Origin: a virus
Taxonomy: Duplodnaviria > Caudoviricetes
Virus record (IMG/VR): IMGVR_UViG_3300027804_000186
Coordinates: 1 to 27,841 of that record
DNA: 27,841 nt
Direction: 5' to 3' (one strand)
Positions 17,669 through 17,748 of this stretch are shown one piece after another; the stretch's first letter is position 1; each line of letters begins with the position of its first letter. A model generated the notes under the pieces. The model saw nothing but the letters and a program-made list of their open reading frames with translations. It made no database searches and was not told where the DNA came from. The position numbers and the translations under genes are program-made.

Positions 17669-17710
17669 TACACGGCAGCGAATTTCGCTATCTTAGGACC
17701 GTTATAGGTA
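17669..17710 (+). other. 42-nt sequence complementary to 23S rRNA H69-H71 (E. coli ~1911-1952)
   Basis: Reverse complement of the core 17680-17707 is CTATAACGGTCCTAAGATAGCGAAATTC versus recalled 23S consensus CTATAACGGTCCTAAGGTAGCGAAATTC (27/28); 36/42 over the extended match. Confidence 0.85.
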
Positions 17711-17748
17711 GAGATTGCATCTGAGCAAACTCAGGTGCAATTTCTATT
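17707..17748 (+). other. Long hairpin directly 3' of the anti-23S segment
   Basis: TAGAGATTGCATCTGAG-CAAA-CTCAGGTGCAATTTCTA; the only imperfections are G.T pairs on the + strand. Confidence 0.75.

Follow-up and report, generated by a model that had tools for sequence, protein, structure and literature searches.

What would a tailed phage gain from an intergenic stretch of DNA that is complementary to a conserved segment of 23S rRNA? The question is raised by positions 17669–17748 of the window, the whole 27,841-nt stretch analyzed here, a 28-kb piece of a tailed phage genome that encodes a portal protein, a protease, a capsid protein and a class II ribonucleotide reductase. Most likely, this locus is a real and conserved phage RNA gene with predicted transcription, whose seed has been kept complementary to helices 69–70 of 23S rRNA. 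The basis of this reading is computed, and comprises complementarity, conservation, orientation, wobble-only change and a covarying 3′ hairpin.

The complement of 23S rRNA and the RNA that would carry it

The element is preceded on the + strand by a conserved gene used here as the synteny anchor (16565..17242; phrog_3704) and, directly upstream, by an FmdB-like zinc-ribbon gene (17281..17463; PF09723, phrog_1076). It is followed by an array of eight promoter/small ORF/terminator cassettes (17903..21530; repeat families D1, D2, D5 and D7) on this strand, and the initial annotation was correct in placing it just before this array, which starts at 17903. A 9-nt box is found on the + strand only, at 17777, 17916, 18235, 18678, 19099, 19526, 19962, 20483 and 21088. 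It lies ~20 nt upstream of every cassette −10 box, with a related palindrome in the hairpin before every promoter; this is likely a site for a phage or host regulator. The first cassette contains a hydrophobic ORF of 35 codons (17996–18100, +), which has a ribosome-binding site and falls below the cut-off of the ORF list. Two adjacent cassettes encode paralogues of ~100 amino acids with no Pfam or PHROG match (20568–20870 and 21174–21470, +), each followed by a long perfect palindrome (repeat D14). Short RNA-library contigs, including one that is identical over 270 nt, cover several of the cassette ORFs and may derive from DNA in the library. Beyond the array, a 750-nt AT-rich gap at 21600–22360 coincides with a flip in GC skew and with converging transcription, and is possibly a genome end or replication origin. 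Further on, 24006–25282 (−) holds a tandem pair of phrog_889 paralogues, 82–87% alike in DNA.

Positions 17669–17710 match the reverse complement of Escherichia coli 23S rRNA at 36/42 positions, a value that was the same across all 5,426 genomes searched and that agrees with the earlier claim. The segment faces 23S 1952–1911 in K-12 numbering, which was applied as a +6 offset anchored on the position of helix 69, taken here to be 23S 1906–1924. Three of the six differences (17675 opposite U1946, 17678 opposite U1943 and 17691 opposite G1930) would be G-U wobbles for a + strand RNA, and 17672, 17679 and 17708 are true mismatches. As had been proposed, the sole difference within the 28-nt core (17680–17707) is one of the wobbles, and the core would thus form 27 Watson–Crick pairs and one G-U pair (at G1930) with 23S 1941–1914, in helices 69–70 (E = 7.6e-6 for the core over the loci compared). 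The target was originally given as helices 69–71. Helices 69–70 are upheld, and the full span is not, as the conserved target reaches from 1914 to 1929 or 1941. The core also overlaps the longest exact block common to E. coli and Paenibacillus 23S rRNA (51 nt). A 22-mer of the window's own variant is present in 14 viral contigs from separate assemblies, none of them in rRNA, and the variant core is found in 0 GTDB genomes. Against the final 150 nt of E. coli 16S rRNA, the window shows no match longer than 11 nt.

The duplex predicted between the 5′ 37 nt of the element and 23S rRNA has an energy of −56.6 kcal/mol; 100 shuffles set against the whole 23S rRNA gave a mean of −31.0 and a best of −37.7 kcal/mol. 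The net binding energy computed for naked RNA is near −35 kcal/mol.

The predicted transcript is an ~80-nt small RNA with putative ends at 17672 and 17752 (+), intergenic and lacking an ORF of its own, which is conserved while its flanks diverge. A predicted −10 promoter box lies at 17660..17665 (+). Allowing a variant last base, the same hexamer lies 6–8 nt 5′ of the first conserved bases in 13 of the 16 loci compared, the remaining three having a longer 5′ part. Because of this fixed distance the RNA would start near 17672, and therefore the first three matching bases fall outside it. Two candidate promoters had been put forward: the box at 17660 stands, but the putative −35 hexamer at 17614 is not shared by the two closest relatives, and no −35 box was identified for the element. 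A consensus promoter and terminator scan of the window called neither the promoter of the element nor its hairpin as a classic terminator.

The fold places a weak 5′ hairpin (17674..17692, +) over the bases that pair with helix 70; in all low-energy folds 17677–17681 pair with 17685–17689, and the mismatch at 17679 is explained by this folding back. A comparable short 5′ stem made of other letters is predicted in loci L052, L058, L060 and L064. The segment antisense to 23S 1941–1914 (17680..17707, +) faces the helix 70 strand and the 3′ strand and loop of helix 69, and contains a 16-nt seed (17692..17707, +; 23S 1929–1914), invariant save for the substitutions given below, which is mostly unpaired in the predicted fold. 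Accordingly, opening 17693–17706 would cost 1.9 kcal/mol, and opening the full 28 nt of 17680–17707 would cost 8.4 kcal/mol. In a set of close relatives (loci L003–L013, L016, L059, L067 and L161), a longer 5′ domain adds two hairpins ahead of the same seed, so that the RNA would be ~140 nt long.

The long hairpin described at 17707–17748 (+) is borne out as a 19-bp stem by the centroid fold and by covariation, and could serve as a terminator or as an end-protecting stem. The region 17665–17765 folds at z = −5.8, with 0/200 shuffles as good. Across 12 homologues, 11 of 15 pairs have changed on both sides and 96.6% of cells are paired, compared with 32–55% in slid controls, figures which are favored by the derivation of the structure from the same alignment. 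The U tail that follows is weak in the window's copy. Rfam covariance models gave three matches to the window at E ≤ 1, none on the element, and, when 17 loci were searched, the eight that carry other element types gave tRNA matches only. In silico, the element nonetheless has two features expected of a seed-and-terminator sRNA, namely a predicted promoter of its own, as a −10 box, and a conserved 3′ hairpin.

Conservation, wider occurrence and host

Relatives were sampled by the anchor gene (16565–17242) and not by the motif, and the 58 closest of 160 loci were used, in which the 16-nt core was sought by identity alone, without credit for wobbles. With at most one mismatch, the core is present in 35 of the 58 loci, always on the + strand and 133–2,956 nt from the anchor gene, and in 27 of the 32 loci that have at least 3 kb downstream. 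No decayed forms, with two or three mismatches, occur among the 58. The 35 include the window's own record, and several contigs occur in both collections; without that record, the remaining 34 loci represent 18 distinct elements. Over these, pairwise identity is 95% in the core and 35% and 28% in the flanks.

Each of the 11 core substitutions in the 18 distinct elements would leave a G-U pair for a + strand RNA: eight are A-to-G changes facing U1926, two are A-to-G changes facing U1917 and one is a C-to-T change facing G1929. Conservation in related phages and substitutions that preserve pairing had both been named as checks in the initial annotation, and both speak for the element. The 11 substitutions represent three kinds rather than independent events, and the chance of three wobble kinds under a transitions-only null is ~0.06 by our own arithmetic. 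With 11 of 24 forks of the anchor-gene tree open, independent substitutions cannot be counted. The rRNA itself lacks these changes, with a change at 1930 in 0 loci and at 1926 in one locus across 185,579 species genomes. The G that faces U1926 is, in some relatives, paired within the RNA as well, and hence need not reflect the target.

The element is nevertheless dispensable: among the 32 close loci that extend at least 3 kb downstream, 5 lack it nearby, all 55 of the more distant viral loci lack it within ~4 kb, and three cultured relatives (Samisti12, Comrade and Peregrin) lack it, giving two-mismatch matches only, at control level. Searches of whole records recovered the exact core in 9 of 29, mostly close ones, along with a single one-mismatch match.

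Beyond this clade, a search with the two wobble positions of the core left free returned ~270 IMG/VR stretches. Among the 119 that were read, drawn from 29 of 64 IMG/VR parts, none is rRNA. On the antisense strand, a terminator-like hairpin follows within 100 nt in 56 of 74 distinct contexts; on the sense strand the figure is 10 of 74, against a background of 40/208, or 19%, for what is a loose terminator caller. The equally conserved control segment 23S 2598–2613 gave 52 loci, with a hairpin in 2 of 32 contexts and 26 of the 32 inside open frames, two visibly rRNA contexts (L562 and L575) remaining among these 32. A second control, 23S 1066–1081, failed as such because it matched another phage RNA. 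Among terminator-bearing contexts with both wobble positions left free, from 90 of the 119 loci read, 33 are unchanged, 8 carry wobbles and 1 another change. A helix-70 pattern added 94 loci, with a terminator in 26 of 36 contexts.

The complement is presented in several designs. In WhiB phages of 150–170 kb, the seed comes right after the promoter and is followed by the terminator; in loci L050, L051, L054 and L456 it lies in a loop closed by a covarying stem. In 12 of 74 contexts (controls, 0/32 and 1/97), the helix-70 complement lies further downstream, for the most part within a hairpin loop, and in 9 of 45 contexts complements of 1976–1967 and 1938–1924 are joined such that helix 71 is skipped. 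The carriers are not one family, since in several types the complete records have no capsid of the window's type or no WhiB. Cultured carriers are five Vibrio phages, PWH3a-P1 among them, Pseudaeromonas phage KLEP7 and Rhodococcus phage Trina, and a further carrier lies in a Sutterella wadsworthensis genome as a prophage. Forms that are split and displayed in loops are found in the cultured Vibrio phages too. Split, permuted and loop-displayed forms, together with the single strand bias, therefore fit pairing with a folded RNA and not a DNA site. Matches in phiLo, Viktualia, NV1.1.1, SpP and MT835492 were not counted, being inside genes or too short.

The same searches turned up other relations between viral records and rRNA. 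The match in Paenibacillus phage Pd_22F reflects a whole rRNA operon in the record and is not an element; unannotated host 23S and 5S rRNA occupy 82011–85116 of MZ092003.1. Several tiny “phage” records are likewise rRNA fragments. About 230 viral contigs carry a sense-like copy, ~38 nt long, of 23S helices 43–44, the uL11-binding center (loci L605–L724; for example L614, L617, L619, L643 and L646, around positions 270–350), often on the same strand among tRNA genes. Three of these copies match the Rfam LSU model locally, and such a copy is absent from the window. In loci L561 and L592 (301–316), a 16-nt complement of 23S 2598–2613 lies between inverted repeats, one of the two also having a short complement of 2538–2545; these are possibly a second anti-23S RNA, one that would be aimed at the peptidyl-transferase region.

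As for the host, two WhiB genes are present in each of five close relatives (5/5; records of 65–109 kb), and WhiB is a marker of actinobacterial hosts (PMC6802176). The nearest cultured capsids are those of Streptomyces phages, at ~51%. The window derives from a freshwater phage, presumably of actinobacteria. The 23S rRNA of the class Actinomycetes mismatches the seed at both 1921 and 1922, weakening the predicted duplex from −56.6 to −46.7 kcal/mol. The distinct helix 69 stem involved is that of Pseudarthrobacter, and 10 of 12 identical records belong to Actinomycetes, in six genera; it also appears in records labeled Pseudomonas and Acinetobacter, which are probably contaminated (locus L729, 360–400; plasmid collection). 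Because of the double mismatch, and because the phage clade carries WhiB, the host is predicted to lie in an Actinomycetota lineage outside the class Actinomycetes; Acidimicrobiia, a common group in lakes (PMC6802176), would be an example. Searches with WhiB homologues resolved the host to phylum only, and no capsid relative that would identify a host by prophage was found in GTDB genomes. A host whose 23S rRNA carries U1946C, which would turn one 5′ wobble into a Watson–Crick pair, was considered and dropped, such rRNA being found in only 18 loci, none titled Actinomycetota. Of the element, only the helix-70 part is present in the two WhiB phages that have a Trina-type capsid, one of which is known to infect a member of the Actinomycetes; this fits the difference in host helix 69, albeit in just two cases. 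No seed matched to Actinomycetes was found in phages (0/35, and 0/4 at fewer than two mismatches).

Three freshwater RNA runs hold 6–13% of the words of the window, all as contigs. A depth of 25,000 at 17680–17707 comes from records of 31–44 nt that carry one other letter and a loose rRNA end, and is consequently community rRNA rather than phage RNA. The contig-only RNA runs contain no phage-specific signal over the element and no record over the 3′ hairpin, and gaps in contigs prove nothing.

Proposed action on the large subunit and competing readings

From these observations, it is probable that the RNA of the element pairs with 23S rRNA. What had been proposed as a + strand sRNA acting on host 23S rRNA is strengthened by its presence in relatives, by wobble-only changes, by a single orientation and by independent assemblies, and is narrowed with respect to the helices 69–71 span and one of its promoters. 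More tentatively, and at somewhat less than even chance, the ~80-nt RNA would pair with helices 69–70 of free or immature 50S subunits and block their joining with 30S. Helix 69 is buried in bridge B2a within 70S ribosomes.

In this mechanism, transcription would proceed from the −10 box at 17660, presumably early in infection since the RNA heads a same-strand cassette array. The unpaired 16-nt seed would first contact the loop of helix 69 in a 50S subunit that is free or still immature, and then invade the 3′ strand of helix 69, displacing the 5′ strand. Opening of the weak 5′ hairpin would allow the duplex to extend into helix 70, as far as 1941. Access would be expected only where helices 68–71 are undocked, as in late assembly intermediates and in recycled or HflX-split subunits, and not in 70S ribosomes; a 50S subunit so bound should be unable to join 30S. 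Helices 68–71 are disordered in late 50S intermediates (PMC9638911) and in mycobacterial 50S subunits split by HflX, which stay inactive (PMC11831132). Mutations in the helix 69 loop impair translation and 70S formation (PMC1190176), and a peptide nucleic acid (PNA) against helix 69 blocks translation (Kulik 2017, cited in PMC12828698), so that the helix is reachable by an antisense molecule. The gain to the phage may be guessed to be a reduced supply of ribosomes to the host, with large subunits that are new or idle being sequestered early in infection and their rRNA possibly fed to turnover. Strong inhibition would be costly to a lytic phage, as the phage itself needs ribosomes.

The wider reading, that phages of several phyla have repeatedly evolved RNAs that read folded 23S domain IV and clamp the 50S subunit at bridge B2a, stands at roughly even chances. 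It would embrace the contiguous, loop-displayed and helix-skipping designs, as well as seeds trimmed to helix 70 where helix 69 of the host differs (Trina and L043).

The same sequence evidence for pairing would apply if the RNA instead acted as a protective splint or folding chaperone, with reversible pairing that shields helices 69–70 from ribonucleases or refolds idle 50S subunits and so keeps ribosomes working. This, the main rival, is unlikely, yet has some appeal: G-U pairing at 1926 and at 1930 is seen repeatedly across unrelated element types despite a Watson–Crick option, as if to moderate binding; helix 70 is cleaved at 1939–1943 by two mycobacterial MazF toxins, one of them solely in free 50S (PMC5408214); and an inactive pool of mycobacterial 50S subunits with disordered helices 68–71 has been described (PMC11831132). 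However, the seed covers 1914–1929, such that most forms fall short of 1939–1943 and the window's copy is mismatched at 1942. Moreover, net binding of about −35 kcal/mol would need a release step, and a 50S subunit with an invaded helix 69 cannot join 30S.

Less probable still is a degradation tag, whereby a duplex of 16–28 bp would mark 23S rRNA for RNase III or another nuclease and its nucleotides would pass to the phage ribonucleotide reductase. RNase III does cut long duplexes, the window's duplex would be 28 bp with one wobble, and the window encodes a class II ribonucleotide reductase. Many forms, though, pair over 16–17 nt only, which is short for RNase III, or in split loops. Any exposed rRNA segment would serve this purpose, yet the control segment is not so used, and no RNase III is encoded by the phage in any of the five relatives.

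There is little to recommend a guide RNA of the box C/D or H/ACA type that directs modification of helices 69–70. Modifications are dense in helix 69, at which archaeal and eukaryotic guides are directed, and such guides work with antisense elements of 10–20 nt. Against this, 17672–17752 contains no box C, its single D-like tetramer is unconserved and lies within a stem, and no protein-binding motif is common to the many architectures. The contiguous seed, outside the hairpin, also forms no bipartite pocket of the H/ACA kind. A Nop domain (PF01798) was found in 0/5 relatives, the window's own record being a 28-kb fragment, as was an RluD-type synthase (PF00849), TruB-type enzymes lying outside the search.

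Phages do carry sense copies of 23S helices 43–44, and by analogy the minus strand could be the functional one, forming a mimic of helices 69–70 that soaks up a recycling factor, modifying enzyme or nuclease. This is very improbable, as helix 69 cannot form on the minus strand, where its 5′ strand (1906–1910) is not conserved. In addition, terminators favor the antisense strand (56/74 vs 10/74), the −10 box is on the + strand, and wobble-only change holds for that strand alone.

The element could also be a DNA site: an attP matching an rRNA operon, or a sequence that I-CeuI or another homing endonuclease would cut or be decoyed by. The attP and a nuclease decoy had been offered as alternatives; a DNA site is highly improbable. 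It draws on the overlap of the core with the 51-nt block exact in E. coli and Paenibacillus, and the I-CeuI site lies in this rRNA stretch. Yet the five relatives, four of them at least 90% complete, encode no tyrosine integrase (PF00589), no serine recombinase domain (PF07508) and no LAGLIDADG_1 domain (PF00961), the window's variant is absent from GTDB genomes as noted above, and split or permuted forms, strand bias and wobble-only change would have no reason in DNA. For a remnant of an rRNA intron, Rfam recognized no intron family and the split forms contradict a contiguous site. Finally, rRNA contaminants do occur in phage records, but a chance match or a chimeric assembly with rRNA reads is scarcely credible given the E value, the recurrence of the variant 22-mer in independent assemblies and the phage-conserved flanks, which also answers the concern over chimerism raised in the initial annotation.

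Comparison with known systems

No phage RNA antisense to 23S rRNA was described in the literature searched, which was mostly open-access, and the element is absent from Rfam. A natural class of antisense RNA directed against the host ribosome would, if the present reading of the sequences is correct, be categorically new in kind. Among viral data, a survey of structured RNAs in phages is the most directly comparable; the element may be among its ~8,500 candidates from DNA viruses, and those parts of the survey available to us reported no overlap with rRNA predictions and named no 23S complement (PMC10690425).

Like sRNAs of the RybB type from bacteria and phages, the element would have its own promoter, a short unpaired seed, a 3′ hairpin and a tolerance for G-U pairs. 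The targets of those sRNAs are mRNAs or other sRNAs, whereas the complement of the element is a core segment of 23S rRNA and its seed is longer, at 16–28 nt, and near perfect. The known sRNAs of bacteria and phages act on mRNAs, and use of Hfq is not known in the host clade. In archaea and eukaryotes, modification guides are known to pair with rRNA. Box C/D and H/ACA guides resemble the element as natural RNAs complementary to rRNA, including helix 69, that pair during assembly. The element differs from them in lacking conserved boxes and, in five relatives, a Nop-domain or RluD-type partner, and in being a viral gene in a bacterial host. Nor does it have the flanking boxes C and D or the Nop-domain partner of TIGR-type arrays.

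The remaining parallels concern the target. The synthetic PNA is directed at the same helix but is man-made, and no natural counterpart is named there (PMC12828698). An archaeal valine tRNA fragment is a small RNA that inhibits translation through subunit binding, as proposed here for the element, but is made by the host, acts at the 30S decoding site and involves no long antisense pairing with 23S rRNA (PMC11009984). MazF-mt3, MazF-mt6 and mycobacterial HflX all act on helices 68–71 of free 50S subunits and prevent 70S formation, but are host proteins that cut or disorder rRNA, where the element would pair with it (PMC5408214, PMC11831132).

If the proposed pairing is correct, a viral RNA directed at the most conserved subunit-joining segment of 23S rRNA would amount to a new means of taking over the host or of protecting ribosomes. 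Such an RNA would also serve as a natural probe for the final steps of 50S assembly and as an evolved counterpart of the antisense antibacterial idea, and the cultured carriers (Vibrio PWH3a-P1, Pseudaeromonas KLEP7, Rhodococcus Trina and the Sutterella prophage) make the element testable now. The element thus appears to combine the build of an sRNA with an aim at rRNA and, if it works at all, would act in the manner of a guide RNA or an antisense drug.
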